Notes under the pieces: model-generated
Database searches by the model: none
Told to the model about the DNA's origin: nothing
What the model saw: only the letters and a program-made list of their open reading frames with translations
Program-made: the position numbers and the translations under genes
In this document: positions 2,062 through 20,202 of the stretch, piece by piece
Numbering within the stretch: position 1 is the first letter of the stretch
Layout of the letters: every line of letters starts with the position of its first letter
Origin: Victivallales bacterium
GTDB lineage: Bacteria; Verrucomicrobiota; Lentisphaeria; Victivallales; GWF2-38-69
Direction: 5' to 3'
Length of the DNA stretch: 64,000 bases
Assembly (NCBI GenBank): GCA_965228125.1
Contig: OZ245791.1
Location: 2,378,240-2,442,239, forward strand

Positions 2062-2066
2062 AGTTC

Positions 2067-5211: not shown

Positions 5212-5243
5212 TTCTTTATATATTTAAATCCTCTTAATATTTT

Positions 5244-6239: not shown

Positions 6240-6443
6240 ATTTTTTCTTGAGAGTGGGTAAAAGCCCTATTTCGAGCAAAGTAGGTATCCCATATCAATC
6301 GTCACCTTGAAAATTCAGAAAAATGATGGATTTTAAGATTCAGTGTCTGATTAAGTCTGGCTCAGTCTTGGATTGAGGTTGCATCAACCAAAAGTGTTTT
6401 TATCTTTTCCGGATAATTATTATAAATTGAAAGATTATTTGTT

Positions 6444-8273
6444 TTGGCTATAGAACTTCACAATAAAGAAGAATCGCTGTACAAGGGCGCATTTAAGTCT
6501 CTTGGAGTCGTATTTGGAGATATAGGAACGAGTCCTATTTACACTCTTTCGGTTATTTTCATGCTTCTTAAACCTACTGAAGATAACATAATATCCATTT
6601 TGTCTCTGATAGTCTGGACGCTACTTACTGTCGTTACGATGAAGTATGTCTGGCTGGCTATGAGTTTGAGCAGAAGAGGAGAGGGAGGGATAGTGGTACT
6701 GCTGGACATACTCTCCTCCTATATCAAAAAAGGGCGGACACTTACATTTATTTCATTCTTGGCTTATATCGGGATTTCTTTGATGATAGGTGATGGGATT
6801 ATCACACCTGCTATTTCTATCCTTAGTGCCGTAGAGGGTATAAAGCTCATTCCAGGCGTAGCGAACATTCATCAGAGCATACTTATTTTCCTGGCGGCGG
6901 TTATAGCTATTGTTTTATTGTCATATCAGAGAAAAGGAACGGATAAGGTCGCTAAAACTTTTTCTCCGATAATGATGGTATGGTTTACGTCTTTGCTCCT
7001 TTATGGTTTGTTTCATCTTATTCAGGCTCCATGGGTTTTGAAAGCTATCAATCCTTGGTATGGAGTCTCATTCCTGTTCAATCACGGGTTTTTAGGCTTC
7101 TTTACTTTATCCGAAGTAATACTTTGCGCGACTGGCGGCGAGGCTCTTTATGCCGATATGGGACACCTGGGTAGGAAGCCGATTACTGTAGCGTGGAGCT
7201 TTGTTATGGTAGCTTTGGTGATTAACTACATGGGACAGGGAGCTTATATGCTTAAGTATCATGTTTCGCAGAATTTGCTTTTCGGAATGGTTTTCCATGA
7301 AACCAGCTTTTTATATATACCGTTTCTTGTTCTAAGTATATTAGCCACGGTTATAGCATCCCAGGCTATGATCAGCGGAATATTCTCAATAGTGTATCAG
7401 GCTATAAATCTGAGAATACTGCCGTTGATGAGAATAGATTTCACTTCTGCAAAAATTAAGGGGCAGATTTATATTTCTTCGGTCAACTGGTTTCTTCTCT
7501 TTTTTATAGTCATAATAATGCTTGAGTTTAAGGACTCGTCCAATCTTGCGGCAGCATACGGTTTAGCTGTTACAGGGGCTATGTTTCTTGCCGGTATTAT
7601 GATGGCTATGATATTCTTTATACGAAAACAGTATGTTAAACTTATATGTACGATATTTGTTACTTTTATAGTAGGCGTATTTTTGGCTTCGACCACGATG
7701 AAGATCCCTTATGGCGGGTATTGGTCAATTCTCTTGGGATGCATACCTTTAGGCATAATTATAATTTACATGAAAGGGCAGAAAAGGTTATTCAAGGTAA
7801 TGAACCCTATTCCTCTTGATAGATTCCTGATATGCTACAATGAGGCTTACAAGGAACTCTCAAAAATTAAAGGTACAGCTATTTTTCTGGTCAGGGATGA
7901 AAAGATTATTCCGCCGTACGTACTCCATACAATGATAAAAAACCAGATCATTTATGAGGATAATATTTTTGTTTCAATCGAAAGGAAAGAGGGCCCCTGG
8001 GGAATTTCATACGGTTTCAAAGATACTCTTTCTGAAGGTTTGAGGGTTTTTGAAATTAAGATGGGGTATATGGAAATAGAAGATATTGAGAAAATATTCA
8101 GAGTTTCCTGGATCAAGGAAAAGGCTATATTTTACGGCATAGAAGACATATACTCCATGAACCCTGTATGGAGAATTTTCGCAATAATGAAGATGCTTCT
8201 TCCTTCGTATGTGAGGTTTTACAATCTCCCTGCTTCAGAACTTCATGGAGTTACTACTAAAATCGATATGTGA
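6444..8273 (+). CDS. kup: KUP/HAK/KT potassium uptake transporter
   Basis: GVVFGDIGTSPIYT signature, 12 TM segments and a cytoplasmic C-terminal domain. TTG start as given in the ORF track. Confidence 0.9.
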   Translation: MAIELHNKEESLYKGAFKSLGVVFGDIGTSPIYTLSVIFMLLKPTEDNIISILSLIVWTLLTVVTMKYVWLAMSLSRRGEGGIVVLLDILSSYIKKGRTLTFISFLAYIGISLMIGDGIITPAISILSAVEGIKLIPGVANIHQSILIFLAAVIAIVLLSYQRKGTDKVAKTFSPIMMVWFTSLLLYGLFHLIQAPWVLKAINPWYGVSFLFNHGFLGFFTLSEVILCATGGEALYADMGHLGRKPITVAWSFVMVALVINYMGQGAYMLKYHVSQNLLFGMVFHETSFLYIPFLVLSILATVIASQAMISGIFSIVYQAINLRILPLMRIDFTSAKIKGQIYISSVNWFLLFFIVIIMLEFKDSSNLAAAYGLAVTGAMFLAGIMMAMIFFIRKQYVKLICTIFVTFIVGVFLASTTMKIPYGGYWSILLGCIPLGIIIIYMKGQKRLFKVMNPIPLDRFLICYNEAYKELSKIKGTAIFLVRDEKIIPPYVLHTMIKNQIIYEDNIFVSIERKEGPWGISYGFKDTLSEGLRVFEIKMGYMEIEDIEKIFRVSWIKEKAIFYGIEDIYSMNPVWRIFAIMKMLLPSYVRFYNLPASELHGVTTKIDM

Positions 8274-8316: not shown

Positions 8317-8388
8317 GTTTAACAATATGTCCACCCATCTTGTTTGAGCGGAGCGTTTTCCAGATTAAGCGCACCTGCCCTGTTAGCT
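8317..8388 (-). repeat. attC site (cassette 17, distal end of the array)
   Basis: Plus strand reads GTTTAAC (R' GTTAAAC on the minus strand) ... GAGCGGAGCGTTTTCCAGATTAAGCGCA ... GTTAGCT. It belongs to the same subfamily as the attCs at 8852 and 9206. Confidence 0.8.
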
Positions 8389-8389
8389 T

Positions 8390-8845
8390 TTATTTTATTG
8401 ATTTTTTAAATGCTTTATATTCGTTTGTCTTGTATCCCAGAGATAGATAGAATTTGTGGGCATTTGGTCTATCAGTATCTGTAATGAGCATGATATACGA
8501 GCAATTTAATTGTTCTGCTATTTCCTCAATTTTATTCATCAATGCTTTACCAATACCCAAACGACGAAATTTACTACTGACAACGACATCCTCAACAATC
8601 ATAAAAGATTTACATTTCCCAAATAACATCTGACACGAAACGCCTAATAGTGTTCCTGCAAGGATTCCATCAACTCTAGCTCCTAATAGTACATGGTTGG
8701 AATCATCTTTGACTTTTAAAAGAGTTTTCCTCATCTTATCTATTGAAGCTTCATTGTCCTGAAGTTCCTGATATAAACTTGCTAATTCCTTTAGATCGTC
8801 TTCTTTTATTTTTGCTATTTTGATTTTGTTTGATTGGTCATTCAT
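8390..8845 (-). CDS. GNAT family N-acetyltransferase (cassette 17)
   Basis: Acetyl-CoA binding motif FRRLGIGKALM and overall GNAT fold pattern. Confidence 0.8.
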   Translation of the reverse strand: MNDQSNKIKIAKIKEDDLKELASLYQELQDNEASIDKMRKTLLKVKDDSNHVLLGARVDGILAGTLLGVSCQMLFGKCKSFMIVEDVVVSSKFRRLGIGKALMNKIEEIAEQLNCSYIMLITDTDRPNAHKFYLSLGYKTNEYKAFKKSIK

Positions 8846-8851
8846 TTTTTA

Positions 8852-8923
8852 AGCTAACATTTAAGTCTCTTGTCTGGAAAAGAGCGGAGCGATTTCCATG
8901 TTAAGTGCATCTACAAGTTAATT
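8852..8923 (-). repeat. attC site (cassette 16)
   Basis: AGCTAAC ... GAGCGGAGCGATTTCCATGTTAAGTGCATCT ... GTTAATT. The left box is the exact reverse complement of GTTAGCT at 8382-8388. Confidence 0.8.
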
Positions 8924-9195
8924 CAATCTTTATGTTTCTTTAATGAGCTTTCAACCAAAGCTTCTTTATCAAAGCTTTTCCAAAATTCCTTATCTGGTCT
9001 TTGTTCTTCGGTTTTCAACTCTACCATCCTGGACAAACTTTCAATATCTTTCCTAAGTAGATTTTGAATACATTCTGGAATATGTCGTTTATGTACAATA
9101 TGGTTTTGTATGCAAAGAACACAATTGCCTCTTATGGGGCATTCTTTTTGACTACAAGGACAATTTTTATTATGAGATATATTAAAATCTTTCAT
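8923..9195 (-). CDS. Small Cys-rich protein, possibly DUF6485-like (cassette 16)
   Basis: NCPCSQKECPIRGNCVLCIQNHIVHKRHIPEC cysteine pattern. The start was moved to the internal ATG at 9195 because the longer ORF (to 9246) runs into the upstream attC. Confidence 0.45.
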   Translation of the reverse strand: MKDFNISHNKNCPCSQKECPIRGNCVLCIQNHIVHKRHIPECIQNLLRKDIESLSRMVELKTEEQRPDKEFWKSFDKEALVESSLKKHKD

Positions 9196-9205
9196 ATTAT
9201 TTTCT

Positions 9206-9276
9206 TTATAACAATTATGATTTCTTATATTTTCGCAGCGGAGCAAGAAAATATTAAGAGCATCTACTGGTTATGA
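9206..9276 (-). repeat. attC site (cassette 15)
   Basis: TTATAAC ... GCAGCGGAGCAAGAAAATATTAAGAGCATCT ... GTTATGA. Same subfamily as 8317 and 8852. Confidence 0.7.
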
Positions 9277-9280
9277 GTTT

Positions 9281-9646
9281 TTATTTAGTATGTTCCACGT
9301 ATTCAACAATTATACCGTCTGGGTGTTGGACTCGCATTTTTATTCCTTTTCGTGGTACGTCAACCGGGTTTTCTAAAATTGTAATTTTTTCGCTTAGGAA
9401 ATGATAATAGTATTCTTTTACACTATCTACTAAAAAAGTTATTTTTGTCTTTTTAAATATTTCTAAATCCTTTTCTGTGCCTGCTAATAATAAAATTGAT
9501 CCAACCATTGCCAGTTTAAGATTGATTTCAACGTAATCGAATTTCATGCTGCATTTTTCATTAAATATATTCTCGTAGAACTTGATTGTTTCATCTAACT
9601 CTGACTGGCTTATGAATATTCTTGTAAGAGATTTTATGATTTTCAT
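9281..9646 (-). CDS. VOC (glyoxalase/bleomycin-resistance fold) family protein (cassette 15)
   Basis: About 120 aa with the beta-alpha-beta-beta-beta pattern and a typical N-terminal 'I.V.DLDE.I.FYE..F' region. The assignment rests on recollection of the family only. Confidence 0.5.
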   Translation of the reverse strand: MKIIKSLTRIFISQSELDETIKFYENIFNEKCSMKFDYVEINLKLAMVGSILLLAGTEKDLEIFKKTKITFLVDSVKEYYYHFLSEKITILENPVDVPRKGIKMRVQHPDGIIVEYVEHTK

Positions 9647-9661
9647 TTATTTTATTTTTTC

Positions 9662-9718
9662 TTCTAAGATCGAATTCAGCTGCGATTAACTTTTCTGGAA
9701 ATACTTATTTTCTTAATT
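9662..9718 (-). repeat. Degenerate attC site (cassette 14)
   Basis: TTCTAAG-ATCGAATTCAGCTGCGATTAAC...CTGGAAAT...CTTAATT. It matches the AATTCAGCGG...CGCTGAAAT consensus, but both outer boxes are mutated. Confidence 0.5.
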
Positions 9719-9817
9719 TTACCAATACCATTGCATAAGAAACTCAGGCGTTTTTGCCCATGTTATCAAGTTTTGATAATCTTTGGATTTAAATTCTTTT
9801 ACTATTAAGTTCATCAT
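9719..9817 (-). pseudogene. 32-codon ORF resembling the N-terminus of a GNAT acetyltransferase (truncated cassette 14)
   Basis: Manual translation gives MMNLIVKEFKSKDYQNLITWAKTPEFLMQWYW*. It resembles GNAT N-termini (..W..d.e...qW..) but stops just before the degenerate attC. It is below the ORF-track length cutoff. Confidence 0.35.
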
Positions 9818-9829
9818 AATTTCTTTACC

Positions 9830-9885
9830 TAATAATATTAAAATTCAGCGGTATTGCTTTAGGTTTAGTGAAGTGATTGTTAGGG
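9830..9885 (-). repeat. attC site (cassette 13)
   Basis: TAATAAT-ATTAAAATTCAGCGG...GTGAAGTGATTGTTAGGG. The right box GTTAGGG overlaps the stop codon of the OsmC ORF. Confidence 0.65.
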
Positions 9886-10260
9886 TTCCATTTTAAAAGT
9901 AATCCGTGATGAAAGTGTTTTGCGTACCGGGCAATTTCTTGCTACTTCCAAAATGTCATTTCTTTCACTTTCTGATAAATTGCCATCTAATTTTACATTG
10001 TAATCAAAGCAAACTTCATTAGGCTGGCTGCGATCAAGGTTTACAGTTGTTGAAATCGTTTTTAATTGCAATGATTTTTTGTCTGCGTACATTCTGATTG
10101 ACATGTTTACACAGCATGCCAGCGCGGATTCAAGTAATTCGTGAGGTCTGAATCCATCTCCGCTACCTCCTTTATTTAACGCTACGTCGCTATAGGAAAT
10201 AACAGTTCCGTTTGTGAATTTTGTTTTATATGGCTGCTGTTCATTATTGGCTTTGATCAT
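9880..10260 (-). CDS. OsmC/Ohr family peroxiredoxin-like protein (cassette 13)
   Basis: About 125 aa with the two conserved Cys contexts (ALACCVNMS and ARNCPV) typical of OsmC family proteins. Confidence 0.75.
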   Translation of the reverse strand: MIKANNEQQPYKTKFTNGTVISYSDVALNKGGSGDGFRPHELLESALACCVNMSIRMYADKKSLQLKTISTTVNLDRSQPNEVCFDYNVKLDGNLSESERNDILEVARNCPVRKTLSSRITFKMEP

Positions 10261-10337
10261 ATCTAAGCTCTTACTTATTGTTTATTTTAAATAAAATTCA
10301 ACTGTTTGCGATTAACACGTCCTCTGGAGAATTGTCA
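10261..10337 (-). repeat. Degenerate attC site (cassette 12)
   Basis: ATCTAAG...AAAATTCAACTGTTTGCGATTAAC...CTGGAGAATTGTCA. It is recognisably related to the consensus, but the boxes are mutated and the left boundary is uncertain. Confidence 0.4.
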
Positions 10338-10874
10338 TTTAAATTTATAATTTGTTTTATAGTCGTTATATTTAATTTTCGCATAGTCTGATTCCGAAAT
10401 GATTTTATCAGCTTTTGACTCTGCTGGATAGCCGACAGCAAGCATCATTTCGACCCTTAAATAATCAGGAATATCGAGTAATTGCTTAATGTATTCTTCT
10501 GATAATAATTGTTCATTGGCATATCTTTTTCTTATTTGGATCCAGCACGAACCCAGTCCTAAAGATTCGGATGTAAAATGTAGTATTGTTGCAGCAATTG
10601 AAGAGTCTTCTATCCAGACATCTGTTTTTCTTTCATCAGCAAGAACAATAATGAGGATGTTTGAGTCTTTTATAAAGTCAGCGGAATTTGTTTTTGCTTT
10701 TGATAACCTGGCTATTAGTTCTTTATTATCAACGATTATAAACTCCCAGGGTTTAATATTATTCCCTGATGGGGAATACAATGCCGACTTTATAAGAGCT
10801 TCTATGGTTTCTCTTGGTATTTTGTCTTTCTTATATTTTCTTATGCTTCTTCTTGTCTTTAGTAAATCTATCAT
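10335..10874 (-). CDS. Nitroreductase family protein (cassette 12)
   Basis: MIDLLKTRRSIRKYK N-terminus, PSGNNIKPW motif and a length of about 180 aa. Confidence 0.85.
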   Translation of the reverse strand: MIDLLKTRRSIRKYKKDKIPRETIEALIKSALYSPSGNNIKPWEFIIVDNKELIARLSKAKTNSADFIKDSNILIIVLADERKTDVWIEDSSIAATILHFTSESLGLGSCWIQIRKRYANEQLLSEEYIKQLLDIPDYLRVEMMLAVGYPAESKADKIISESDYAKIKYNDYKTNYKFK

Positions 10875-10887
10875 TTCTACCTCTTCA

Positions 10888-10935
10888 ATAGTTACTATAC
10901 AATACCGCGACTAGTGTATCGTGTATAGTAACTAT
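10888..10935 (-). promoter_or_regulatory. Perfect 14-bp inverted repeat (ATAGTTACTATACA / TGTATAGTAACTAT) with a 20-nt spacer, upstream of the nitroreductase start
   Basis: The arms at 10888-10901 and 10922-10935 were read directly. The element lies between attC 10953 and the ORF start at 10874. Confidence 0.4.
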
Positions 10936-10952
10936 TCAAAGATAGTTTTTAT

Positions 10953-11011
10953 TGATAACATAGAGTTCAGCTACCGAGCTTAGCGAGGTTCGCTGGACTG
11001 ACAAGTTATCG
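10953..11011 (-). repeat. attC site (cassette 11)
   Basis: TGATAAC-ATAGAGTTCAGCTACCGAGCTTAGCGAGGTTCGCTGGACTGACAA-GTTATCG. Confidence 0.8.
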
Positions 11012-11012
11012 T

Positions 11013-11843
11013 TTACCATAATTCTATTTTTTTGCCCTTTAGTATGAAATGTAGTGTAAAACCAACTGCAACCATTGTAATACATCCCATTGCAGTTGCT
11101 TCTGCTCCGGTAAACTGTGATACTCTTTGTCCGTTTAATGTAACATGGAAGAAATCCATGCCATAAACAATGCCTAAAAAATAATTCCAACCAACATGTA
11201 TCCCTGCAGGAATCCAAACGGATTTAGTTTTGAAGTAAGCATAACTTGCTGCCCACCCCATGAATGTAGCATTCAATGAAGAGAAAATTGTATATTTCGG
11301 ATTAAAAATAAAATGAAGTAAGCCGAATATTAGCCCTACTAAAATAATTGCTATTATTGGTGAAAAAACTTTCCCAAGTTTTTTTAATATCCATGTTCTC
11401 AGCACAATCTCTTCCATTGTACCCTGAAAAAGACTTGCAGGAAAAAGCAATGCTATTAATGCTATAAACTTAAATGTACTTTGAGTTACTGTAGAATAAT
11501 CTGGGTTGTGTATTAACAAAAAAGTAATCCAGGTTATCAAAGCTGCAATTATAGCTAAAATAAGGCCTATGCCAAATAGATTAACAGAGTTTCTATTGAA
11601 TGATATGCCTACATCTGCTAATGATTCTTTATCTGCGACTTTGGCAAAAATATAGACAATCATTATCATTTCAATAAAAATTATAAATTGAATTCCTATG
11701 ATTGCAATTAGCTGTAGATACTGGTTTGATATTTCTCTTATGTAAGTATGAAATCCTAACAATGAATAGGAGCCTAGCATTACAAATGTTGAAATAGTTA
11801 AGAATATTAAAATTAAAACTACTGATATGATTTTCTTTTTCAT
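11013..11843 (-). CDS. CPBP family intramembrane glutamic endopeptidase (CAAX protease/Abi-like) (cassette 11)
   Basis: Multi-TM protein with EEIVLRTW (EExxxR) and FGLLH motifs. Confidence 0.8.
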   Translation of the reverse strand: MKKKIISVVLILIFLTISTFVMLGSYSLLGFHTYIREISNQYLQLIAIIGIQFIIFIEMIMIVYIFAKVADKESLADVGISFNRNSVNLFGIGLILAIIAALITWITFLLIHNPDYSTVTQSTFKFIALIALLFPASLFQGTMEEIVLRTWILKKLGKVFSPIIAIILVGLIFGLLHFIFNPKYTIFSSLNATFMGWAASYAYFKTKSVWIPAGIHVGWNYFLGIVYGMDFFHVTLNGQRVSQFTGAEATAMGCITMVAVGFTLHFILKGKKIELW

Positions 11844-11863
11844 CTCTCTTTCTCTTTTTTTGT

Positions 11864-11923
11864 CGATGACAATTTGATCACCTGCCGAGCGGAAGCGAGG
11901 TTAGATGAAGCGACTTGTTACAA
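11864..11923 (-). repeat. attC site (cassette 10)
   Basis: CGATGAC...CCGAGCGGAAGCGAGGTTAGATGAAGCGACTT-GTTACAA. The right box is the exact reverse complement of TTGTAAC at 12379-12385. Confidence 0.65.
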
Positions 11924-11967
11924 TTATATTTTTTTTTATCACACGGAGGCGCCAAGCCACAAAGAAA

Positions 11968-12387
11968 TTATATGATATTACCATTGATGACTCTTGAAAT
12001 ACCATCTTTCATAAGTGCCTCTCCAAAATTCAACAAATAACCCAACTTACAATTTTTTAATCTAAGATATGTCAACAATTGTTTTTTGTGTACTTTGGAA
12101 ACAGATTCTACAGATTTTAATTCAATAATGACTTTGTCCTCGACAATAATATCTGCTCTAAACCCTTCATCAAACTTAATTCCCTTAAAACATATGGGAA
12201 TAGATTTCTGTCTTTCTACTTTTAGATTATGTGCTTGAAGTTCATTGTATAGAATTACCTCATATACTGTTTTAAGTAATCCCTGCCCAAGCTCTTTATG
12301 AATATTAACGGCACAATCTACTATAATTTTACCTATTTCATTTTCTTTGTGTCTCTGAGGCTTTGTGTGATTTTTTATTTGTAACAT
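11968..12387 (-). CDS. GxxExxY protein (PD-(D/E)XK nuclease-fold family) (cassette 10)
   Basis: ELGQGLLKTVYEVILYNEL (GxxExxY) followed by the DIIVEDKVIIELK core. The start ATG abuts the GTT of the R' box. Confidence 0.8.
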   Translation of the reverse strand: MLQIKNHTKPQRHKENEIGKIIVDCAVNIHKELGQGLLKTVYEVILYNELQAHNLKVERQKSIPICFKGIKFDEGFRADIIVEDKVIIELKSVESVSKVHKKQLLTYLRLKNCKLGYLLNFGEALMKDGISRVINGNII

Positions 12388-12440
12388 TAGAATTCAGCGG
12401 CGCGCGATTAGCGCATTAGGTGGAATGATTTAGTTAGGAT
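12379..12440 (-). repeat. attC site (cassette 9)
   Basis: TTGTAAC-ATTAGAATTCAGCGGCGCGCGATTAGCGCATTAGGTGGAATGATTTA-GTTAGGA. Confidence 0.8.
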
Positions 12441-12861
12441 TTGAATTTGTTTTAATGGTTATGGGAGTGTCCTCTGTCCCGGCATAGAAAACTATGATTT
12501 CTGCAACTCCATTTCCTTCATTTTTTCCATAGTGCCCTTTATTAACAAGTTCGATGATTGAATCTCCAGCTTTTAGATGTAATAGCTCTCCATTTTCTTT
12601 TACAACAGTTAGTTCCCCTTTCAATAGCACGCCTGCATTAATTACTGGATGTTTATGTAGCGGCAACTGTGTCTTTGGAGGAATTAAGATTTTTAAGATA
12701 GTTATTTTCGGTTTACCTTTTGGGTAATTTGGTAATGGCTCACCATCCCAACTTGAACCAGATTGGGCTAATACATCAACCTTAATAGTGGCAACTTCAT
12801 CAGCTGCAATATAGTTTGATAGTATTAAAGACAGGAATATTCCCAAAAATATTTTTTTCAC
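12430..12861 (-). CDS. Cupin domain protein with signal peptide (cassette 9)
   Basis: N-terminal signal-like MKKIFLGIFLSLILSNYIAA. Cupin motifs LPLHKHPVINAGVLLKGELTV and GHYGKNEG. GTG start. Confidence 0.7.
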   Translation of the reverse strand: MKKIFLGIFLSLILSNYIAADEVATIKVDVLAQSGSSWDGEPLPNYPKGKPKITILKILIPPKTQLPLHKHPVINAGVLLKGELTVVKENGELLHLKAGDSIIELVNKGHYGKNEGNGVAEIIVFYAGTEDTPITIKTNSNPN

Positions 12862-12875
12862 TCTTCTCCTTTTCT

Positions 12876-12934
12876 TTATAACATTGAGTTCAGTGGCGCG
12901 CGATTAGCGCGTTCGCTGCAACGGCTGGTTACCA
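12876..12934 (-). repeat. attC site (cassette 8)
   Basis: TTATAAC-ATTGAGTTCAGTGGCGCGCGATTAGCGCGTTCGCTGCAACGGCTG-GTTACCA. It overlaps the last ~10 codons of the toxin ORF. Confidence 0.8.
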
Positions 12935-13248
12935 GTTTCCTTTTTTATTCTATTTTTGAATTTGGGATAAAGTAATTGCCGTCCATGGACAACTGCAAGA
13001 ATATATACAATAGAATCAGCTATCTCATAAATAATTCTGTAACTGTAAACGAAATGTTCTCTTACTTTTTCGTTGTCTTCTTCGGGAACCACTCTCCCGG
13101 AATGTGGAAAGATTGATAAATTCCTGGTTATTTCTAGAATCTTAGTAACTACACTGGATGCATAAAGGTGAGAATCTTTTTCAATATACTCCGCTATCCC
13201 TTCAATGTCTTTTAAAGCATCATCAGACCAGATTACTTTATAATCCAT
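12904..13248 (-). CDS. RelE/ParE family type II toxin (cassette 8)
   Basis: The MDYKVIWSDDALKDIEGIAEYI...YRIIYEI...IVYILAVVHGRQ pattern is typical of ParE/RelE toxins. It overlaps the upstream small ORF by 16 nt. Confidence 0.8.
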   Translation of the reverse strand: MDYKVIWSDDALKDIEGIAEYIEKDSHLYASSVVTKILEITRNLSIFPHSGRVVPEEDNEKVREHFVYSYRIIYEIADSIVYILAVVHGRQLLYPKFKNRIKKETGNQPLQRTR

Positions 13249-13424
13249 TTTTCTAACCTTTTTTCTACTTCATCCTGAGTATGAATTTTGCCTTGATTTA
13301 TCTGTTCTCTGGATTTAGATAATTTTTCAGCAATGTAAAGATGATATTGTATATCCTCAAAAGTAGAATTGTCAGGTAGATTTTTGATTATTTTTTCTGC
13401 TTCATTTTTGGCTGTCAACAACAT
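13233..13424 (-). CDS. Putative antitoxin of the ParE/RelE module (cassette 8)
   Basis: 63-aa ORF immediately upstream of the toxin and overlapping it, preceded by GGAGG. The C-terminal ...HTQDEVEKRLEKW is reminiscent of small antitoxins. The assignment is by context. Confidence 0.6.
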   Translation of the reverse strand: MLLTAKNEAEKIIKNLPDNSTFEDIQYHLYIAEKLSKSREQINQGKIHTQDEVEKRLEKWIIK

Positions 13425-13431
13425 GGTATAC

Positions 13432-13478
13432 CTCCATAACTTGTTATATGGATATTATATCTTCATTTTGTCATTATA
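13432..13478 (-). promoter_or_regulatory. Candidate cassette-internal promoter and operator for the TA pair
   Basis: On the minus strand there are two TATAAT hexamers (reverse complement of 13473-13478 and 13454-13459) and a near-palindrome CCATATAACAAGTTATGG (13433-13450) next to the GGAGG RBS. Confidence 0.4.
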
Positions 13479-13502
13479 GCAATTTGTATCTGATTTCTAT
13501 TT

Positions 13503-13560
13503 GGGTAACATTGAATTCAGCGGCGCACGATTAGTTCATTTGTCTGAATGTGCATTAAAA
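13503..13560 (-). repeat. attC site (cassette 7)
   Basis: GGGTAAC-ATTGAATTCAGCGGCGCACGATTAGTTCATTTGTCTGAATGTGC-ATTAAAA. The right box has G>A relative to the GTTAAAA predicted from 14026-14032. Confidence 0.7.
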
Positions 13561-13561
13561 G

Positions 13562-14026
13562 CTACCACTTATAGTGCTTGCCTCTTTTGTTTATCCAATC
13601 ATCTATGCCATTCTTTTTAATGGCCTCAAGATTTTTTAATAAATCCGGATGAAATGCTGAATGCTTGAGGATTAGTTCACACCTTTTAAAATCTTTGCAA
13701 TTCCAACAACCTTCAATTTCTTTGTCTAAAATGCACTTTCTGATTTTGCAAGCTTTTGTACAGCCCAGTTCTGAATATGGTCCTTCTACACAAGAACCTG
13801 TACATTCTAATTTTTTTAGCTCTTTTAGGACTTCAATAAAATCAGGAAACTTTTTAAACACGGGATTTTTATTAGCTTTAAAATCTGCGTATTTATCTAG
13901 CCTTGTTTCTACTGCAACCTGCTCAAGTTTTTTTATTGTATCGAATAATTCTTTGTTTCCAGGAATACAGTCTTTACAATAAAGCCCACAATATGCAGTG
14001 TATTTTCTTATTTCATTCTTTTTCAT
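13562..14026 (-). CDS. Cys-rich DUF3795-like protein (cassette 7)
   Basis: YCGLYCKDC N-terminal motif plus further CxxC-type clusters (CTGSC, CKIRKC, CWNC). Confidence 0.5.
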   Translation of the reverse strand: MKKNEIRKYTAYCGLYCKDCIPGNKELFDTIKKLEQVAVETRLDKYADFKANKNPVFKKFPDFIEVLKELKKLECTGSCVEGPYSELGCTKACKIRKCILDKEIEGCWNCKDFKRCELILKHSAFHPDLLKNLEAIKKNGIDDWINKRGKHYKW

Positions 14027-14086
14027 TTTAACGTTAAAATTCAGCAGCGCGCGATTACGGTCGTTCGCTGAAATGATTGGTTATAG
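14026..14086 (-). repeat. attC site (cassette 6)
   Basis: TTTTAAC-GTTAAAATTCAGCAGCGCGCGATTACGGTCGTTCGCTGAAATGATTG-GTTATAG. Confidence 0.8.
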
Positions 14087-14668
14087 TTTTCTTTTTTCTT
14101 TTATTTCCTTTCCTGCATGAAACCCAAATCCCAGGAAGTTTCCCATAGACCAGTACTCGCGGGCTTTTGCGCAATAAATAAGAGGATCGATTTTTGAAAT
14201 ATCTATTCCGGCTCTTTTTGATTCATCTGCTTTGTCTGTATCAACATGTGTTTCTATTATCTCCCCTAATATTAGAACCCAATCACCAAGGATGATATCA
14301 TGACTAACTTTACATTCGATATTATATGGACACTCTTTGATGATCGGAGGTTTGATTTTCGAACTCTTAATAGGTGTAAAACCAGTATCCTCGAACTTAT
14401 TATTTTTTAGTCCGGTTGTTATCCCGCAATAATCTACTTCTTTAAAGAAAGATGCCTTCGGGATATTTACTGAAAACTCTTTGCAATCTTTTACTAGTTC
14501 CAGAGAATACCGGGTCTTTTTAAGAGAAATGCCGATAGTTGGAGGAGTTGAGCTTGCAATTCCAATCCATGCTAAAGTGATGATATTAGCCTTATTACCT
14601 GTGCCGCTTACGATTAATGCAGAAGGTACCGGAAATATTGCGTCTGATGGACCAAGCTGTTTTTTCAT
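14081..14668 (-). CDS. Flavin reductase family protein (FMN-binding split barrel) (cassette 6, distal gene)
   Basis: The PVPSALIVSGTG.KANIITLAWIG pattern is typical of flavin reductase-like domain proteins. Confidence 0.7.
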   Translation of the reverse strand: MKKQLGPSDAIFPVPSALIVSGTGNKANIITLAWIGIASSTPPTIGISLKKTRYSLELVKDCKEFSVNIPKASFFKEVDYCGITTGLKNNKFEDTGFTPIKSSKIKPPIIKECPYNIECKVSHDIILGDWVLILGEIIETHVDTDKADESKRAGIDISKIDPLIYCAKAREYWSMGNFLGFGFHAGKEIKEKRKL

Positions 14669-15409
14669 TTATTTTACTTCTTTAATTTTTTTTAAGTATT
14701 CTGGTTCTTCAATATCATGAAAATATTTTTTATAAATATATTCATCGAGTTCAATCGCATTATCTGAAAGGTAATAGCTATCAAGATTAAAAGTTCCTTT
14801 AGATTCAGAATACGCATTTCCACCATTGATATAATAATCAAATTTACTTACCTTCTCAAAGGCCATATAAACATTGCAAACAGAATCCGTCAAGGATTCA
14901 TGCAATTTAGCTCTCCAACGTTCTTTGCAGTCAGGATTTAAATAATATTTTCTTGGAATAGCACCCACAAAATTTTTTATATTATTGGAAAAGAGCATAT
15001 CTTTTCTTTTGCTTGCACAAGGTAACGATATTCTACAATCAAATTTTCTAAATATGTCTGGAATAAAAATTGCTTGATTGTTTATGCTTATTTTAAGGGG
15101 GCTTTCATCATCCACTTCTGTTATCTTTATCTCATTATCAATAAAGTAATCTAATAAACCAATTATTCTTAAGTTCTCTTTTAAATATCCATCTGCACTT
15201 TCAACTATATTAATGAAGCAGTTTTTTTCTAAAAAGTATTCAACTACTTTTTTTAGTAATATTGCATCTGTTCTTGGATGATTTTCTTTTGGTGGCCGCG
15301 CTAAATTAATTTTGATTAGAATCTTTTTGCTGTTTATGTGATTAGATTCTAGTTTTGTATCTACAAAGAGTTTTGAAATTTCCTGATTTTGACTTATAGA
15401 TTGAATCAT
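14669..15409 (-). CDS. DUF362-like protein (cassette 6, proximal gene)
   Basis: KILIKINLARP...HPRTD resembles the DUF362 'vliKpNl...tTdP' N-terminal motif. Its stop abuts the start of the flavin reductase, with no attC between them. Confidence 0.4.
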   Translation of the reverse strand: MIQSISQNQEISKLFVDTKLESNHINSKKILIKINLARPPKENHPRTDAILLKKVVEYFLEKNCFINIVESADGYLKENLRIIGLLDYFIDNEIKITEVDDESPLKISINNQAIFIPDIFRKFDCRISLPCASKRKDMLFSNNIKNFVGAIPRKYYLNPDCKERWRAKLHESLTDSVCNVYMAFEKVSKFDYYINGGNAYSESKGTFNLDSYYLSDNAIELDEYIYKKYFHDIEEPEYLKKIKEVK

Positions 15410-15418
15410 TTTTTATTA

Positions 15419-15478
15419 TTGTAACGTTGAAATTCAGCGGCCGACCAACGGGAGGTTCGCTGAAATGATTGGTTATAA
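15419..15478 (-). repeat. attC site (cassette 5)
   Basis: TTGTAAC-GTTGAAATTCAGCGGCCGACCAACGGGAGGTTCGCTGAAATGATTG-GTTATAA. It is nearly identical to the attC at 16028. Confidence 0.85.
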
Positions 15479-15485
15479 TCTTTCT

Positions 15486-16028
15486 TTAATAATTTTCATA
15501 TTTAACTGTCAAAGTTAAAGCTTTTCTTTCCGTTTTGTGCCTTTCTGGGCTAAGGAAGCCATTTATTGGATAACCTAAAAAAATTAAAGCTGTAGGTTCA
15601 ATGTAATCGGGTATATTAAATTCCTTACGTATAATGTTCGGGTCAAATAACCCAACCATAACACTTCCTATGTTTTTTTCTCTGGCTGCAAGCATGATAT
15701 GGTCACATACAATTCCAATATCAAGGTCTCCAGAACACTTATTATCAAAAGGGCTTATTAAAGGCTCTGATTTATCTTGCGAAACAATAAGAACGCACTG
15801 CGAATTAAAAGTTTGATATGCTTCTTGAATTTTTAAAATGTTTTTTGGGTTTTGAACAACAATAATTCTTTGTGGTTGCTTATTACATGCACTGGGGGCA
15901 ACACGGCTAGCGGCTAAGATATAGCCAAGATCAGATTTTTTTATTGGTTGATCATTAAAGCCTCGCGTAGTACATCGTTTTTTTGCTAATTCAAGAAAAT
16001 CCATATATTCCCTTTTTCCATGCCACAT
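15486..16028 (-). CDS. Nitroreductase family protein (cassette 5)
   Basis: FLELAKKRCTTRGF, APSACNKQPQR and a length of about 175 aa. The true start may be the internal ATG at 16004 (MDFLEL...). Confidence 0.8.
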   Translation of the reverse strand: MWHGKREYMDFLELAKKRCTTRGFNDQPIKKSDLGYILAASRVAPSACNKQPQRIIVVQNPKNILKIQEAYQTFNSQCVLIVSQDKSEPLISPFDNKCSGDLDIGIVCDHIMLAAREKNIGSVMVGLFDPNIIRKEFNIPDYIEPTALIFLGYPINGFLSPERHKTERKALTLTVKYENY

Positions 16029-16087
16029 TATAACATTAAAGATCAGCGGCTGACCAACGGGAGGTTCGCTGAAATGACTGGTTAAAT
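16028..16087 (-). repeat. attC site (cassette 4)
   Basis: TTATAAC-ATTAAAGATCAGCGGCTGACCAACGGGAGGTTCGCTGAAATGACTG-GTTAAAT. Confidence 0.85.
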
Positions 16088-16563
16088 TACCATTTTTTTC
16101 TTTCTTCTTTTAACTCTTGCTTCATATCGTGAATCATGTTTTCCCCAATAAACATGTTTCTACTGTTAATAAGCCCATCACAGATTTTATGACCGTTGAA
16201 TTCTAAGATTGCAGTATCTATAACAATCCAATCTGGAAGTAATTCTTCCAATGGTGTTGTTAGACATTTAACACAATGCCAGTTGTTGTTTTTATCTTTT
16301 AATGCATATCCTTGTTTATATTTTTTCCCATAAATAAAAGTCCCATATATTCCATTTTGGACTGCAGATATAAATAACTTGTCATATCTGTCATCGAAAG
16401 AATAAATAAGATTAATCTCTTTTTCATATAATTTATCTCGTGCATGTGTAAAGTCTTTTAAGCTTATGAGTTCTTTTCCTGTTACTTCTGATAACAAAAG
16501 CTTGTATTGTGCAAGAAAACTTGCGGCTAAATCCGGTTCTATTAGTGTCATTTTTCTTTCCAT
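16087..16563 (-). CDS. Hypothetical protein (cassette 4)
   Basis: 158-aa ORF that exactly fills the interval between two attC sites. I recognise no motif. Confidence 0.55.
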   Translation of the reverse strand: MERKMTLIEPDLAASFLAQYKLLLSEVTGKELISLKDFTHARDKLYEKEINLIYSFDDRYDKLFISAVQNGIYGTFIYGKKYKQGYALKDKNNNWHCVKCLTTPLEELLPDWIVIDTAILEFNGHKICDGLINSRNMFIGENMIHDMKQELKEERKKW

Positions 16564-16620
16564 TTAACATTGAATTCAGCGGTCGAGCTTTGCGAGGTTC
16601 GCTGGAATGTTTGGTTATGG
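16562..16620 (-). repeat. attC site (cassette 3)
   Basis: ATTTAAC-ATTGAATTCAGCGGTCGAGCTTTGCGAGGTTCGCTGGAATGTTTG-GTTATGG. Confidence 0.85.
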
Positions 16621-16633
16621 TTTTCTTATTTTT

Positions 16634-17188
16634 TTATCTTGCCTCATAAATATCATCTGGATATGGCAAATTAAAACTTCGAATGAATTCATTATATAGT
16701 TTCACATATATTTTAAATTCTTCAAAGTCTCCAATTTCCCTATCTTTGAATGCATGTATTGCATTTCTTCTTTTTTGTATGAAATCAATAAAGTCAATCC
16801 ATTTTTTAGTAAGAAGGTTATTCCTTACAAAAAATTGTTTTAATTTTTCTAAAGCTAAACTATCAGGTTCAATCAATTTTCCTTTTTTACCTTTGATCGC
16901 ATTAATATCTTTTTTGTAATCATTGAAATATACTGATAAAAACAATTTTAGATTTCCTTCTACTAAACACCCTAAATTTGTCCAAGCCAAAATTAACTTT
17001 CCATCATCCAAATTATCAGATTCAAACCAAAGTTTTAGACACTTAGAAAGATCAACTTGTCTATCAAGTCTTGATTTACTCATCAAATCAGCAGCTTCGA
17101 CTGGAGCCCAGCCATGCGATTTACTCCAAAATTTTGCTAATTGAGAATTGTAGCTGATTATTTTGTCTATTGTTTTGTTTATATCCAT
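16634..17188 (-). CDS. Hypothetical protein with an HEPN-like Rx4H motif (cassette 3)
   Basis: 184-aa, predicted mostly helical ORF with ...FIQKRRNAIHAFKD... (R-x4-H, RNxxH-like) near the C-terminus, as in HEPN-domain proteins. The start ATG lies inside the R' box (GTTATGG). Confidence 0.5.
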   Translation of the reverse strand: MDINKTIDKIISYNSQLAKFWSKSHGWAPVEAADLMSKSRLDRQVDLSKCLKLWFESDNLDDGKLILAWTNLGCLVEGNLKLFLSVYFNDYKKDINAIKGKKGKLIEPDSLALEKLKQFFVRNNLLTKKWIDFIDFIQKRRNAIHAFKDREIGDFEEFKIYVKLYNEFIRSFNLPYPDDIYEAR

Positions 17189-17244
17189 AACGTTTGAACT
17201 CTCCGGCTGGCGATTAGCCGGTTCGGATCAGTGAGTTGTTATAA
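17185..17244 (-). repeat. attC site (cassette 2)
   Basis: CCATAAC-GTTTGAACTCTCCGGCTGGCGATTAGCCGGTTCGGATCAGTGAGTT-GTTATAA. It has an internal CCGGCTGG/CCGG stem. Confidence 0.8.
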
Positions 17245-17697
17245 GCTTTTATTTTTATTATTGTACTTACATAAAAGTAAAGTTTTTGATTCATAATAAC
17301 TATTGCACCATTGCCATTTTTCATAAATCTCTTTAGGTGCTTCTGATTTATCGTTAATAATAATAAAACCAAATTGTTTATAAAAATTTTCTAAGCATTC
17401 AAATGGAAGACAGTATATTTGGCAGTAAATATTGGAATTTTCAAGTAAAGCACAAACCATCCTCCGCGCAATGCCTAATTTTCTAAATTCTTTGAATACA
17501 TATATGCCACCTAATTCAGATGTAGTTTCATCAATTTTTTGAAGCCTACCGATACCTGCTTTATTGCCATTGAATTCTGCTATTACTATATATTCGTTGC
17601 TGTAATTTGAGTGTTTGAATTTAATTTCATCATATTTTTTATTTATCCACTCTATTTCTTCTTGAAGACATTTTCTTATATTTATTTTTCCGTTCAT
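17239..17697 (-). CDS. GNAT family N-acetyltransferase (cassette 2)
   Basis: FRKLGIARRMV acetyl-CoA-binding motif and a length of about 150 aa. Confidence 0.75.
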   Translation of the reverse strand: MNGKINIRKCLQEEIEWINKKYDEIKFKHSNYSNEYIVIAEFNGNKAGIGRLQKIDETTSELGGIYVFKEFRKLGIARRMVCALLENSNIYCQIYCLPFECLENFYKQFGFIIINDKSEAPKEIYEKWQWCNSYYESKTLLLCKYNNKNKSL

Positions 17698-17705
17698 TTT
17701 TCTCC

Positions 17706-17779
17706 CTATAACAAAAAGCTCACCTATCAGTGCAAAAGCGACAGCGTTTCACTGATTAGGTGGAGCGACCTCGTTAGAC
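17706..17779 (-). repeat. attC site (cassette 1)
   Basis: CTATAAC...CACCTATCAGTG-CAAAAGCGACAGCGTT-TCACTGATTAGGTGG...GTTAGAC. The long stem has a bulged base, and the site overlaps the last ~10 codons of the cassette 1 ORF. Confidence 0.8.
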
Positions 17780-18267
17780 TTCTTTTTATTTATTTTTTCT
17801 TTCTCAGCCGGTAATATTACTGCAAGTTCGTCACTTATATCTAAACCAAATGCAGAAGTAATTATGGCAACTCTTAATCCTATCGCAGCTCTCAATACTC
17901 CCAAAGAACTGAAGAAAGTCCATTCTTCTATACTACCACATAATGGTCTATGGTTTATTCTATGAGTTTGTACCGTATCGAGAAATTTTCTACACTCTGC
18001 TCTAATAATATTTAAATGTTCAGTCAAATTTTCAATATCATCCCATTCCATTAGCTTATCTGTAAGAAATTGTCTTATATACATTATTGAATGAATACAA
18101 TGTTCTGGGACTTCTATAGAATAGTCGTTGTAGAGAACTCTTTTATCTTCTAAAAAAGTTATTATTTGCTTTGCTTTTGTTCGGGAAGTTTTATCTGGAT
18201 TCCAAGATATACCAAAGAAAGGACAACTTATTCCATTAATTCTTTTGAAGATAGATTTAAATTTCAT
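17749..18267 (-). CDS. Hypothetical protein (cassette 1, integrase-proximal)
   Basis: 172-aa ORF preceded by AAAGGAG. I identify no catalytic motif. The C-terminal tail (...NEVAPPNQ) is encoded by the attC. Confidence 0.6.
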   Translation of the reverse strand: MKFKSIFKRINGISCPFFGISWNPDKTSRTKAKQIITFLEDKRVLYNDYSIEVPEHCIHSIMYIRQFLTDKLMEWDDIENLTEHLNIIRAECRKFLDTVQTHRINHRPLCGSIEEWTFFSSLGVLRAAIGLRVAIITSAFGLDISDELAVILPAEKEKINKKKSNEVAPPNQ

Positions 18268-18282
18268 ATTATCTCCTTTCAG

Positions 18283-18289
18283 TCTAACA
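18283..18289 (-). other. Cassette 1 boundary box GTTAGAC (R' core; former attI x attC junction)
   Basis: The minus strand reads GTTAGAC, a perfect GTTRRRY and the exact reverse complement of the R'' box of cassette 1's own attC (plus-strand GTTAGAC at 17773-17779). Confidence 0.7.
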
Positions 18290-18309
18290 TTAATTCTATT
18301 GATTTGTTA

Positions 18310-18317
18310 ATTATACA
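18310..18317 (-). promoter_or_regulatory. Candidate Pc-like promoter: extended -10 TGTATAAT reading into the cassette array
   Basis: The reverse complement of 18310-18317 is TGTATAAT (TGnTATAAT). It lies about 20 nt upstream of the cassette 1 boundary. There is no convincing -35. Confidence 0.4.
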
Positions 18318-18354
18318 CCCTTCAGGTTAACGGAAAAATATTTTTCCAGGAATT

Positions 18355-18785
18355 TTACTCAATCTGTATCAGGCATTTAACGATTTGCTATTTGTTTATA
18401 GAAATGTCCTTCACAGAGATCCGGGAGATTTATCGCAGACGCTAAGAGCCAAGAAACATGAAAACATTCCTGTGATAATGACTAAGAATGAGTGTTTAAA
18501 AGTAATTGAGAATCTCGATGATATATATAAATTGATGTCAAAGGCCATATACGGTGGGGGATTGTGCCTTACGGAATGTATCAGGTTAAGGATTCAGGAT
18601 GTGGATTTTGAACGGCAGGTCCTGACTATACGTGGAGGCAAAGGAAATAAAGACAGGGAAACTTTATTTCCGTCTATTTCAATTGAAGAGTTAAAATTTC
18701 ATATTGAAACAATAAAGGAATTTTATGAACTTGACAGGAGTAATGAAACAAGCTTGGAGTAAGAAGCCCGTTGGATCTACTTTAG
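18355..18785 (+). pseudogene. intI: Integron integrase (IntI) remnant, truncated and internally deleted
   Basis: The frame containing 18385-18762 reads ...NLYQAFNDLLFVYRNVL...PVIMTKNECLKV...AIYGGGLCLTECIRLRIQDVDFERQVLTIRGGKGNKDRETLFP.... This aligns with IntI residues of about 85-205 as I remember IntI1. An in-frame stop at 18328 removes the N-terminus. After the stop at 18760, another frame (18756-18785) reads GVRSPLDLL*, the conserved IntI C-terminal end. Confidence 0.8.
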
Positions 18786-20012: not shown

Positions 20013-20202
20013 AAAAACCCCCTTAATATCTGAAATAAAGTAAATTGAAAAACATTTAGAGCTAAACAGAATATTCCAAAATGAAGATAAATCAAACATA
20101 GCATGGAGAAAACTTTGTTTTCATAAGCAAAATTTATAACCTTGTCATACAAACATAATGATATAAAATTAGTGATTATCTTTTCTGTTAAACTCAAGAA
20201 TT

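Follow-up and report, generated by a model that had tools for sequence, protein, structure and literature searches.

In the window analysed here, which is the whole 64,000-nucleotide (64-kb) stretch of contig OZ245791.1 from a Victivallales bacterium, 10 kb of low-GC DNA separates the stop codon of a Kup potassium transporter gene (kup, 6444-8273, + strand; Pfam K_trans, E=5e-149) from a gene that family searches assign to the ArnB/DegT-type aminotransferases (18864-20099, - strand). GC content is 0.30-0.35 across this interval versus 0.39-0.43 in the flanks, and the 18 short open reading frames (ORFs) packed into it lie without exception on the minus strand (18/18). Reading of the sequence, together with a profile made from seven of the sites, placed 17 attC-type sites on one strand within 8317-18288, where they bound 17 integron cassettes: 14 carry one ORF, two carry two, and one (9668-9835) has no ORF of at least 50 amino acids (aa). 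The array as a whole (8317..18288) is read on the minus strand, the + strand being the recombinogenic (bottom-strand) form of every attC, and beyond it at 18355..18762 (+ strand) lies a remnant of an integron integrase gene, intI. In all likelihood the locus holds the remains of a classical chromosomal integron, its integrase destroyed, in a probable Lentisphaerota genome. The element is chromosomal, since proteins of the window occur on a 3.08-Mb NCBI contig. An initial annotation made from the letters of the sequence had described seventeen palindromic sites that separate co-oriented, mostly single-ORF minus-strand units between kup and an intI remnant. Number, shared orientation, gene arrangement and position were all recovered, the sites running from the kup stop codon (8273) to the remnant, and the lengths of the palindromes needed correction, from 56-77 nt to a measured 55-74 nt.

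The attC identity of these sites was assessed with two covariance models that included no window sequence, R1 built from nine class 1/2 sites and R2 from eleven sites (those of aadA1, aadA2, qacF, gcuF, aacA4, dfrA12, dfrA27, dfrA1, arr-3 and blaIMP-13, and one Tenderia site). The training sites come from class 1 and class 2 integrons of clinical plasmids and from one environmental (Tenderia) plasmid integron; they were delimited between annotated cassette genes, their long loops were trimmed, and they were then aligned. The 11 known attC used for R2 all have TAAC and GTTA without variation, and the model structure comprises a 7-bp R box, a 6-nt spacer, an 8-bp L box and one bulged base on the 3' arm. 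When R2 was run over both strands of the window with filters off, its eight best matches were eight of the proposed sites, all of them full length (positions 1-60 of 60), on the + strand and at the exact proposed coordinates, and seven of them at E<0.01: 15419-15478 (the best site, 39.9 bits, E=3.5e-8), 14026-14086 (36.7 bits, E=2.6e-7), 12876-12934 (32.2 bits, E=4e-6), 16562-16620 (31.8 bits, E=5.1e-6), 17185-17244 (26.1 bits, E=1.7e-4), 16028-16087 (21.2 bits, E=0.0035), 12379-12439 (20.8 bits, E=0.0046) and 10953-11011 (15.4 bits, E=0.12 in the 64-kb search and 0.019 locally). The remaining R2 matches in the window were short noise, from E ~1, and the narrower model R1 returned the same eight sites. 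In plasmid controls both models match the strand opposite the cassette genes, which is the relation found in the window. A home-built model of clinical-integron attC thus scores eight of the sites that the initial annotation had proposed from their appearance. A home-made structural scanner (AAC...GTT, L stem of at least 7 bp, 3'-arm bulge) was discarded as too permissive, with 165 matches on the + and 93 on the - strand of the window.

The bottom strand of known attC sites is bounded by inverted core boxes, 5'-RYYYAAC-3' (R') and, at the opposite end, 5'-GTTRRRY-3' (R'') (PMC5027507). In the window both outer boxes, NNNNAAC ... GTTNNNN on the + strand, are present in 14 of the 17 sites; both AAC and GTT cores are present in 12, one core is mutated in two, and cores are lost in three. 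The boxed sites are the eight matched by R2 and six that it did not score, at 8317-8388, 8852-8923, 9206-9276, 11864-11923, 13503-13560 and 17706-17779. The two core-mutated sites are 11864-11923, with GAC for AAC at 11868-11870, and 13503-13560, with ATT for GTT at 13554-13556. An nhmmer family profile built from seven of the window's boxed sites matched further sites inside the array region only and on the + strand only, two of them boxed and three eroded; 11864-11923 is a clear family member (E=0.037), and 13503-13560 matches in its 5' half only (E=3e-7). The eroded sites match weakly and lie at ~9662-9715 (AAG for AAC, E=0.67), ~9830-9885 (AAT for AAC with GTTAGGG intact, E=0.09) and ~10285-10344 (AAA for AAC, both cores lost, E=1.2). 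These three most eroded sites (9662-10344) are consecutive, and they bracket the ORF-less cassette of 168 bp and a cassette for an OsmC-like protein.

Two attC families are represented in the array. A second type of 71-72 nt comprises the sites beginning at 8317, 8852 and 9206, which belong to the three cassettes furthest from intI, together with an attC in a metagenomic locus, L187; a family of 58-61 nt dominates the rest of the array. The second type shares a conserved loop, GAGCGGAGCG, and a conserved 3' arm, TTAAG.GCA.CT, and its inner stem covaries in 5 of 7 predicted pairs, with the L boxes of sites 8852 and 8317 poorly paired or degenerate. Site 8852-8923 matches the 72-nt family profile at E=1e-14 and is closely similar to the L187 attC. 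By inspection, site 9206-9276 has R' TTATAAC, a 6-nt spacer, L' GATTTC pairing with L'' GAG(C)ATC, a 5-nt spacer and R'' GTTATGA.

Unconstrained minimum free energy folding of the physical sites gave mostly unimpressive z-scores, from -4.5 to +0.9, which is expected because the outer box of a physical site belongs to the neighbouring cassette; once the R' box of the own cassette was restored the sites folded better, often into a full hairpin of R box and L box. Site 17706-17779 reaches -14.4 kcal/mol (z=-4.5), its 3' arm showing a T bulge and a G bulge of one base each. A hairpin with L box, spacer and extrahelical base was accordingly found in eight of the 17 sites through R2 and, by inspection or folding, at 17706 and 9206. 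Judged by their letters and predicted folds, about ten attC sites look competent and about seven degenerate.

The cassette boundaries can be read to the base. Counting cassettes from the intI end, exact reverse-complementary 7-mers join the start of a cassette to the far box of its own attC in cassette 17 (GTTAGCT 8382/AGCTAAC 8852), cassette 10 (GTTACAA 11917/TTGTAAC 12379), cassette 5 (GTTATAA 15472/TTATAAC 16028), cassette 4 (GTTAAAT 16081/ATTTAAC 16562), cassette 3 (GTTATGG 16614/CCATAAC 17185) and cassette 1 (GTTAGAC 17773/GTCTAAC 18282). All six had been listed in the initial annotation, where a single coordinate was off by one (18283 instead of 18282 for the start of GTCTAAC). Over 15 junctions the far box of the own attC agrees with the box at the cassette start in a mean of 5.8 of 7 positions with six exact matches, versus a mean of 4.5 of 7 and no exact match for the two boxes of one physical palindrome. 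Three near-misses differ only in a mutated core or in the outermost base (CGATGAC/CGATAAC, TTTTAAC/TTTTAAT and CTATAAC/TTATAAC); cassettes 2, 7 and 11 each match at 6/7, the mismatch in the latter two being the mutated core base. The three variable outer bases are identical at 31 of 45 positions and give eight exact triplets; when the boxes were permuted 200,000 times, neither figure was reached once (0/200,000). The signature of circularisable cassettes claimed at the outset therefore stands, with the first six bases of a cassette completing its own R' box, six exact 7-mers and eight exact triplets, and it is the classical consequence of an integrase that cuts inside the R' box.

These results also bear on the suggestion that the repeats are ordinary intergenic hairpins, such as terminators or elements resembling repetitive extragenic palindromes, with no relation to integrons. 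The repeats do lie between convergently packed, co-oriented genes, and some of them fit a crude terminator pattern, but a model of clinical attC sites finds them specifically, their boxes are complementary in a cassette-specific manner, a fragment of an integron integrase lies next to them, and they belong to no Rfam family and form no tandem repeats. The matches to the attC model and the box permutation test effectively refute that reading, to which we attach next to no probability. Searches of Rfam at the gathering score and at E<=1 gave no match in the array, and judging by that result Rfam holds no model that matches these sites; the sole family above its gathering score in the window was the bacterial small signal recognition particle (SRP) RNA (RF00169, 55 bits), at 35661-35759 on the minus strand.

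Because it is symmetric, the 7-mer signature shows which boxes share a cassette and not which strand recombines. In known sites the bottom strand has the AAC of R' at its 5' end and carries its extrahelical bases near L'', on the arm across from it (PMC5027507), and the models are asymmetric in the same sense. No full-length model match was found on the - strand in a search of both strands of the 64 kb; since the asymmetric model fits the + strand only, the + strand is the bottom strand, and the cassettes therefore read on the minus strand, each with its ORF before its own attC and with the integrase end of the array at 18.3 kb. The + strand of the sites is also G-rich (GC skew +0.15) and, with the R' of the own cassette substituted, folds ~1 kcal/mol better than the - strand (-8.55 versus -7.54), and the same G-richness and folding tendencies have been reported for bottom strands (PMC5027507). 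The opposite polarity would have the cassettes on the + strand from kup to intI, with antisense ORFs and each attC to the right of its cassette. The symmetric complementarity fits either direction, and the blastn homology between the window (16614-17224) and locus L187 extends 34 nt into the right-hand attC, as that arrangement would have it. This extension is, however, similarity at the level of the attC family, since the upstream attC of L187 is identical to site 17185 at 45/60 and to site 12379 at 45/61 positions. With both models of known attC matching the + strand only as a bottom strand, 18 of 18 ORFs on the - strand, and an intI that would sit at the wrong end of the array, we consider the opposite polarity highly improbable.

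The integrase remnant (18355..18762, + strand) is one open frame of ~135 codons equivalent to IntI1 residues 81-208. At 110.7 bits (E=8.8e-32) over profile positions 71-192 of 315, the family that it matches best is TIGR02249, "integron integrase", and it falls below the full-length cut-off of 265 bits because the gene is truncated; the next-best models are PRK15417, also an integron integrase (59.6 bits), XerA (48.7 bits) and XerC (37.7 bits), such that no Xer-type model exceeds 48.7 bits. The remnant also matches Pfam PF00589 at positions 3-75 of 172, and by tblastn it is 40% identical to the IntI of a Tenderia plasmid (residues 83-203) and 29% identical to IntI1 (residues 81-208). The catalytic Arg146 of IntI1 (GTGMR) is a Cys in the remnant (GGGLC), and the region that would hold His277, Arg280, His303 and Tyr312 is absent, as is the IntI-specific ALERKYP...W motif (from ~residue 213); all catalytic residues except the lysine are lost or lacking. 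We found no other integrase pieces in the 64 kb by tblastn and no frameshifted continuation in the three forward frames around the remnant. The integrase is thus as decayed as the initial annotation had stated, an internal fragment with Arg146 replaced and the C-terminal catalytic region gone, and the locus lacks the functional intI of a complete integron. No close full-length relative of this integrase was found, the matches being an identical copy of 94 aa in another assembly and fragments at 35-60% identity.

As in classical integrons the remnant diverges from the cassettes. A junction of 66 bp (18289..18354) leads from the first cassette recombination point to the start of integrase homology; its translations have no integrase homology, and it is possibly a leftover of attI. 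With only 66 bp before integrase codon ~80, the 5' end of the gene and most or all of attI must have been deleted, and the 3' end is deleted too, the aminotransferase gene beginning ~100 bp beyond. A scan for sigma-70-type promoters returned 50 sites versus 50.0 in shuffled sequence, i.e. no enrichment, and the region that usually holds the cassette promoter Pc is deleted.

This placement bears on whether the array decayed where it stands. IntegronFinder defines a CALIN as a cluster of attC sites lacking integron-integrase (Cury et al. 2016, PMC4889954), and an element of this kind could also have arisen here through rearrangement or insertion at a secondary site, the integrase fragment having arrived along with it or lying there by coincidence. 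In favour of such an origin 95% of CALIN have no nearby intI pseudogene, and many of them have been attributed to rearrangements (PMC4889954); moreover, synteny in the lineage breaks downstream of kup. Yet the fragment occupies exactly the place of an intI, lying ~70 bp past the recombination point of the first cassette and reading away from the array, and no insertion sequence or transposase is evident in the ORF list or family searches between 6.4 and 23 kb, which leaves this origin very unlikely in our estimation.

A more serious competitor holds that the array is not frozen at all, its cassettes being reshuffled in trans by an intact integrase encoded elsewhere in the 3.08-Mb genome, with the local fragment irrelevant. 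About half of the CALIN elements are found in genomes that encode IntI elsewhere (PMC4889954), ~10 of the present sites are canonical, seven score at E<0.01 with a heterologous model, and other metagenomic contigs share these attC families but carry different cassettes. On the other hand, tblastn revealed no second integrase in the 64-kb window, relaxed constraint is suggested by five sites without an AAC or a GTT core and by two more whose L boxes pair poorly, and the arrays in two independent assemblies are identical. We therefore regard reshuffling in trans as unlikely, although it deserves more weight than the other alternatives to the destroyed integron that we favour.

The two closest genomes are Lentisphaerota metagenome-assembled genomes, L003 (Kup 84% and DusB 84% identical) and L004 (Kup 81%, DusB 69%). 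Synteny with both covers window positions 1-8273 and ends at the kup stop codon, and within 10 kb downstream of kup neither genome has an attC, a cassette or an intI. Together with the low GC content, this marks the array as accessory DNA. Of the two things that a comparison of related genomes might have revealed, absence of the array at this locus was thus seen in the two nearest genomes, and turnover of cassettes within the species was not. The aminotransferase gene is split into two ORFs (290 + 132 aa) in a further assembly (L002:10387-11623, versus window 18864-20099), which is a frameshift difference or a sequencing error. A contig in the European Nucleotide Archive (ENA ERZ25074342 ctg15987, locus L001) holds an 8-kb fold-back in which dus, kup, the GNAT gene, ORF 8923 and part of ORF 9281 are followed by the same DNA inverted, and this is almost certainly an assembly artefact.

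On the reading that we favour, an integron integrase gene would once have read rightwards from ~18.3 kb, and its product would have inserted promoterless cassettes singly at the adjacent attI, with the array growing leftwards to kup; if so, the oldest cassettes are those furthest from intI. Each cassette consists of one ORF (or two) followed by its own attC, an imperfect palindrome whose + (bottom) strand folds into a hairpin: the R box holds the AAC/GTT cores, the spacer is unpaired, the L box bears a bulged base on the arm facing the AAC, and the loop varies. The integrase cuts at the A/C step of AAC, and because of this cut the first six bases of a cassette pair with the far box of its own attC. 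Both ends of the integrase gene and most or all of attI would later have been deleted, which, with no integrase left, would have frozen the array. Erosion would then have set in at ~7 attC sites after the loss of the integrase, and the cassettes would presumably now be immobile unless an integrase acts on them in trans.

Several observations weigh against this account and need to be set beside it. The independent model did not score nine of the 17 sites, of which two are canonical by inspection, two are core-mutated, two have a poorly paired inner stem and three are badly eroded; for these nine we rely on where they lie, on how their boxes complement each other, on their likeness to the family and on inspection. 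Known sites with long loops (dfrA1, arr-3, blaIMP-13) likewise escape R1 and R2 at E<=1 in their native context, and since both are narrower than the model of IntegronFinder the nine unscored sites are not refuted. Covariation between paired bases in the 59-61-nt family was no better than in shuffled controls, the pairs being conserved by sequence identity, a test that is uninformative here because these sites are too similar in sequence. Neither attI nor the cassette promoter Pc could be identified. The integrase remnant retains 135 stop-free codons in AT-rich DNA, so its truncation may be recent, and that fits less easily with seven eroded sites. L003 and L004 also differ from each other downstream of kup, which makes this locus a general synteny break and not a clean insertion site, and within the species the cassette content showed no variation, the sole other assembly (L002) being 100% identical at the locus.

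The cassettes nearest to intI encode a mixture of recognisable families and proteins with no family. Cassette 1 (17712..18287, -; attC 17706-17779, 74 nt) has an ORF of 172 aa (17749-18267) that belongs to DUF6650 (Pfam PF20355, E=1.6e-13), and cassette 2 (17191..17711, -; attC 17185-17244) encodes a GNAT acetyltransferase according to Pfam (17239-17697, 152 aa). In cassette 3 (16568..17190, -; attC 16562-16620) an ORF of 184 aa (16634-17188) has no Pfam family, and in cassette 4 (16034..16567, -; attC 16028-16087) one of 158 aa (16087-16563) has no Pfam or NCBIfam match. They are followed by a nitroreductase (PF00881; 15486-16028, 180 aa) in cassette 5 (15425..16033, -; attC 15419-15478) and by the two ORFs of cassette 6 (14032..15424, -; attC 14026-14086), namely a DUF362 protein (14669-15409, 246 aa) and a flavin reductase (14081-14668, 195 aa), between which neither profile nor model searches found an attC. 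Cassette 7 (13509..14031, -; attC 13503-13560) encodes a DUF3795 protein according to Pfam (13562-14026, 154 aa).

Cassette 8 (12882..13508, -; attC 12876-12934) holds a toxin-antitoxin-like pair, in which an ORF of 63 aa (13233-13424) overlaps that of a ParE toxin (12904-13248, -, 114 aa; Pfam PF05016, E=1.7e-18). A cupin (PF07883; 12430-12861, 143 aa) is encoded in cassette 9 (12385..12881, -; attC 12379-12439), and a nuclease of the PD-(D/E)XK family PDDEXK_3 (PF13366, E=8e-39; 11968-12387, 139 aa) in cassette 10 (11870..12384, -; attC 11864-11923). In the longest PDDEXK_3 ORF the ATG (12385-12387) lies across the cassette boundary and takes its G from the upstream R' G|TT; the true start is probably further downstream, because Pfam homology begins at residue 17. 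Cassette 11 (10959..11869, -; attC 10953-11011) encodes an Rce1-like (CPBP) membrane protease (PF02517; 11013-11843, 276 aa).

The limits of the next three cassettes are approximate. Cassette 12 (10291..10958, -; eroded attC ~10285-10344) encodes a second nitroreductase (Pfam; 10335-10874, 179 aa), and just upstream of this minus-strand ORF lies a near-perfect palindrome at 10884-10939 with 18-nt arms that are 94% complementary and a 20-nt loop (TTCAATAGTTACTATACA ... TGTATAGTAACTATTCAA), which is not an attC and could be an operator or a terminator. Cassette 13 (9836..10290, -; eroded attC 9830-9885) carries the gene of the OsmC-like protein (PF02566; 9880-10260, 126 aa), and cassette 14 (9668..9835, -; eroded attC ~9662-9715) is the ORF-less unit of 168 bp, in whose matching interval in L002 a gene of 32 aa has been called. 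Cassette 15 (9212..9667, -; attC 9206-9276, 71 nt) encodes a protein of the glyoxalase/bleomycin-resistance fold (PF00903; 9281-9646, 121 aa), cassette 16 (8858..9211, -; attC 8852-8923, 72 nt) one with no family match (8923-9246, 107 aa from a TTG, or 90 aa as called in L002), and the last, cassette 17 next to kup (8323..8857, -; terminal attC 8317-8388, 72 nt), a further GNAT acetyltransferase (PF00583, E=7e-17; 8390-8845, 151 aa). Three cassette proteins are thus without a family in Pfam and NCBIfam searches, and the content is typical of the usual mix in environmental integrons. The defence models of PADLOC gave one marginal match among the 18 cassette proteins, between the PDDEXK_3 protein and a DRT accessory nuclease (E=8e-4).

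One of the family-less proteins is widespread. Homologues of the cassette 3 product (184 aa) number ~600, at 50-62% identity, and their hosts include Vibrio, Photobacterium, Pseudomonas, Halomonas, Bacteroidota, Anammoxibacter, Desulfitobacterium and others; one UniRef entry calls the protein "Apea-like HEPN domain-containing". A copy in loci L187-L190 (L187:9945-10637) shares 89% aa identity and 88.7% nucleotide identity over 611 nt (window 16614-17224). Both copies begin at the same G|TTATGG, and the L187 copy is preceded by an attC of the 59-61-nt family that R2 scores at 22.6 bits on the expected strand; in this recurrence the mobility of cassettes does become visible. At the other end their homology stops at the last base of the R'' box (CCATAAC versus CCAAAAC), beyond which their own attC differ, the cassette of the window having one of the 59-nt family and the L187 copy one of the 72-nt type; both attC types coexist in the window genome as well as in the L187 genome. 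Although speculative, the array may record the swapping of attC bodies between cassettes at the R'' box, conceivably through rare top-strand recombination of attC with attC in which the cut falls at the AAC of R''. We hold this to be a rather doubtful reading of the sequences, and one sequence pair cannot establish such an exchange; if it were true, ORF modules and attC modules would reassort, which bears on the way in which cassettes come by their attC. There are group II introns that target attC sites, and a group II intron reverse transcriptase/maturase (RVT_1 + GIIM) is encoded at L187:7885-9237, ~700 bp upstream of the attC in front of the homologous cassette.

When metagenomes were scanned for the 3'-arm pattern GTTCGCTGNAAYGNNTGGTTA, more than 120 single matches came back. 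Among 80 of these loci that were searched (L067-L146), model-supported attC were found in 11, in 8 of which the pattern lies inside the site; as a rough estimate, the remaining matches are mostly due to chance. No intact relative of this integron was found in the scan.

In the terms of IntegronFinder the element is a large CALIN beside an intI pseudogene, a category that has already been described. At least two attC within 4 kb and no integrase define a CALIN, and here eight model-supported sites are separated by gaps of no more than ~1.4 kb. It resembles the elements of that survey in its attC spacing below 4 kb, its non-functional integrase, its mostly unknown or non-resistance cassettes and an intI pseudogene within 10 kb (PMC4889954). 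Of the 279 CALIN reported by Cury et al., 6.6% had more than 10 attC and 15 a nearby intI pseudogene (PMC4889954), such that the present array is larger than most and falls into the minority with a pseudogene. The remnant lacks the C-terminal IntI-specific region by which those authors recognised pseudogenes, however, and their pipeline might call the element a plain CALIN. For a sedentary chromosomal integron the same authors used more than 19 attC or presence in 100% of the genomes of a species (Cury et al. 2016, PMC4889954); the present array has no more than 17 sites, and neither of the two nearest species-level genomes contains the element.

Biologically the element comes closest to the integron beside ilvD in Xanthomonas, where chromosomal integrons with an inactivated intI downstream of ilvD were reportedly already described by Gillings and colleagues in 2005. 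In many lineages of that genus intI is inactivated and the arrays are stable (Colombi et al. 2025, bioRxiv 10.1101/2025.06.18.660453), and the present element is likewise fixed beside a housekeeping gene, with its intI inactivated and a stable array of mostly uncharacterised cassettes. Unlike in Xanthomonas, it lies in another phylum, its anchor is kup and not ilvD, inactivation involved the deletion of both gene ends, and the two nearest genomes lack the element here, so that no ancient vertical inheritance is shown. With the superintegron of Vibrio cholerae it shares a chromosomal location, homogeneous attC families and a cassette of toxin-antitoxin type (ParE), and cassettes of this type have been proposed to stabilise large arrays (PMC13108822). 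In contrast to sedentary chromosomal integrons it has 17 sites, two attC families instead of one and no working integrase, and its attC of 58-74 nt are far shorter than the Vibrio repeats (VCR2 = 133 bp; PMC5027507). Class 1/2 mobile integrons share the divergence of intI and cassettes and the R'/L'/L''/R'' geometry of attC (7-nt R', 5-6-nt spacer, L', loop, bulged L'', 5-nt spacer, 7-nt R''), which is close enough for a model built from the attC of aadA, qacF, aacA4, dfrA, arr-3 and blaIMP to recognise eight sites of the window. They differ from it in that the window element has no resistance genes, no transposon or plasmid context, and a remnant that is 29% identical to IntI1.

These findings leave current understanding unchanged, since Lentisphaera araneosa had been listed in 2011 as having an integron integrase (PMC3108266) and CALIN with intI pseudogenes have been reported (PMC4889954). 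What the locus offers is a well-delimited integron that has lost its integrase, with cassette boundaries resolved to the base, in a poorly sampled phylum (probably Lentisphaerota). It adds to the environmental cassette genes, among them three without a family and one family of 184-aa proteins that is widespread across phyla. With intact and eroding attC sites side by side in one array, it could also serve as a natural series for finding which attC features decay first after the integrase has been lost.

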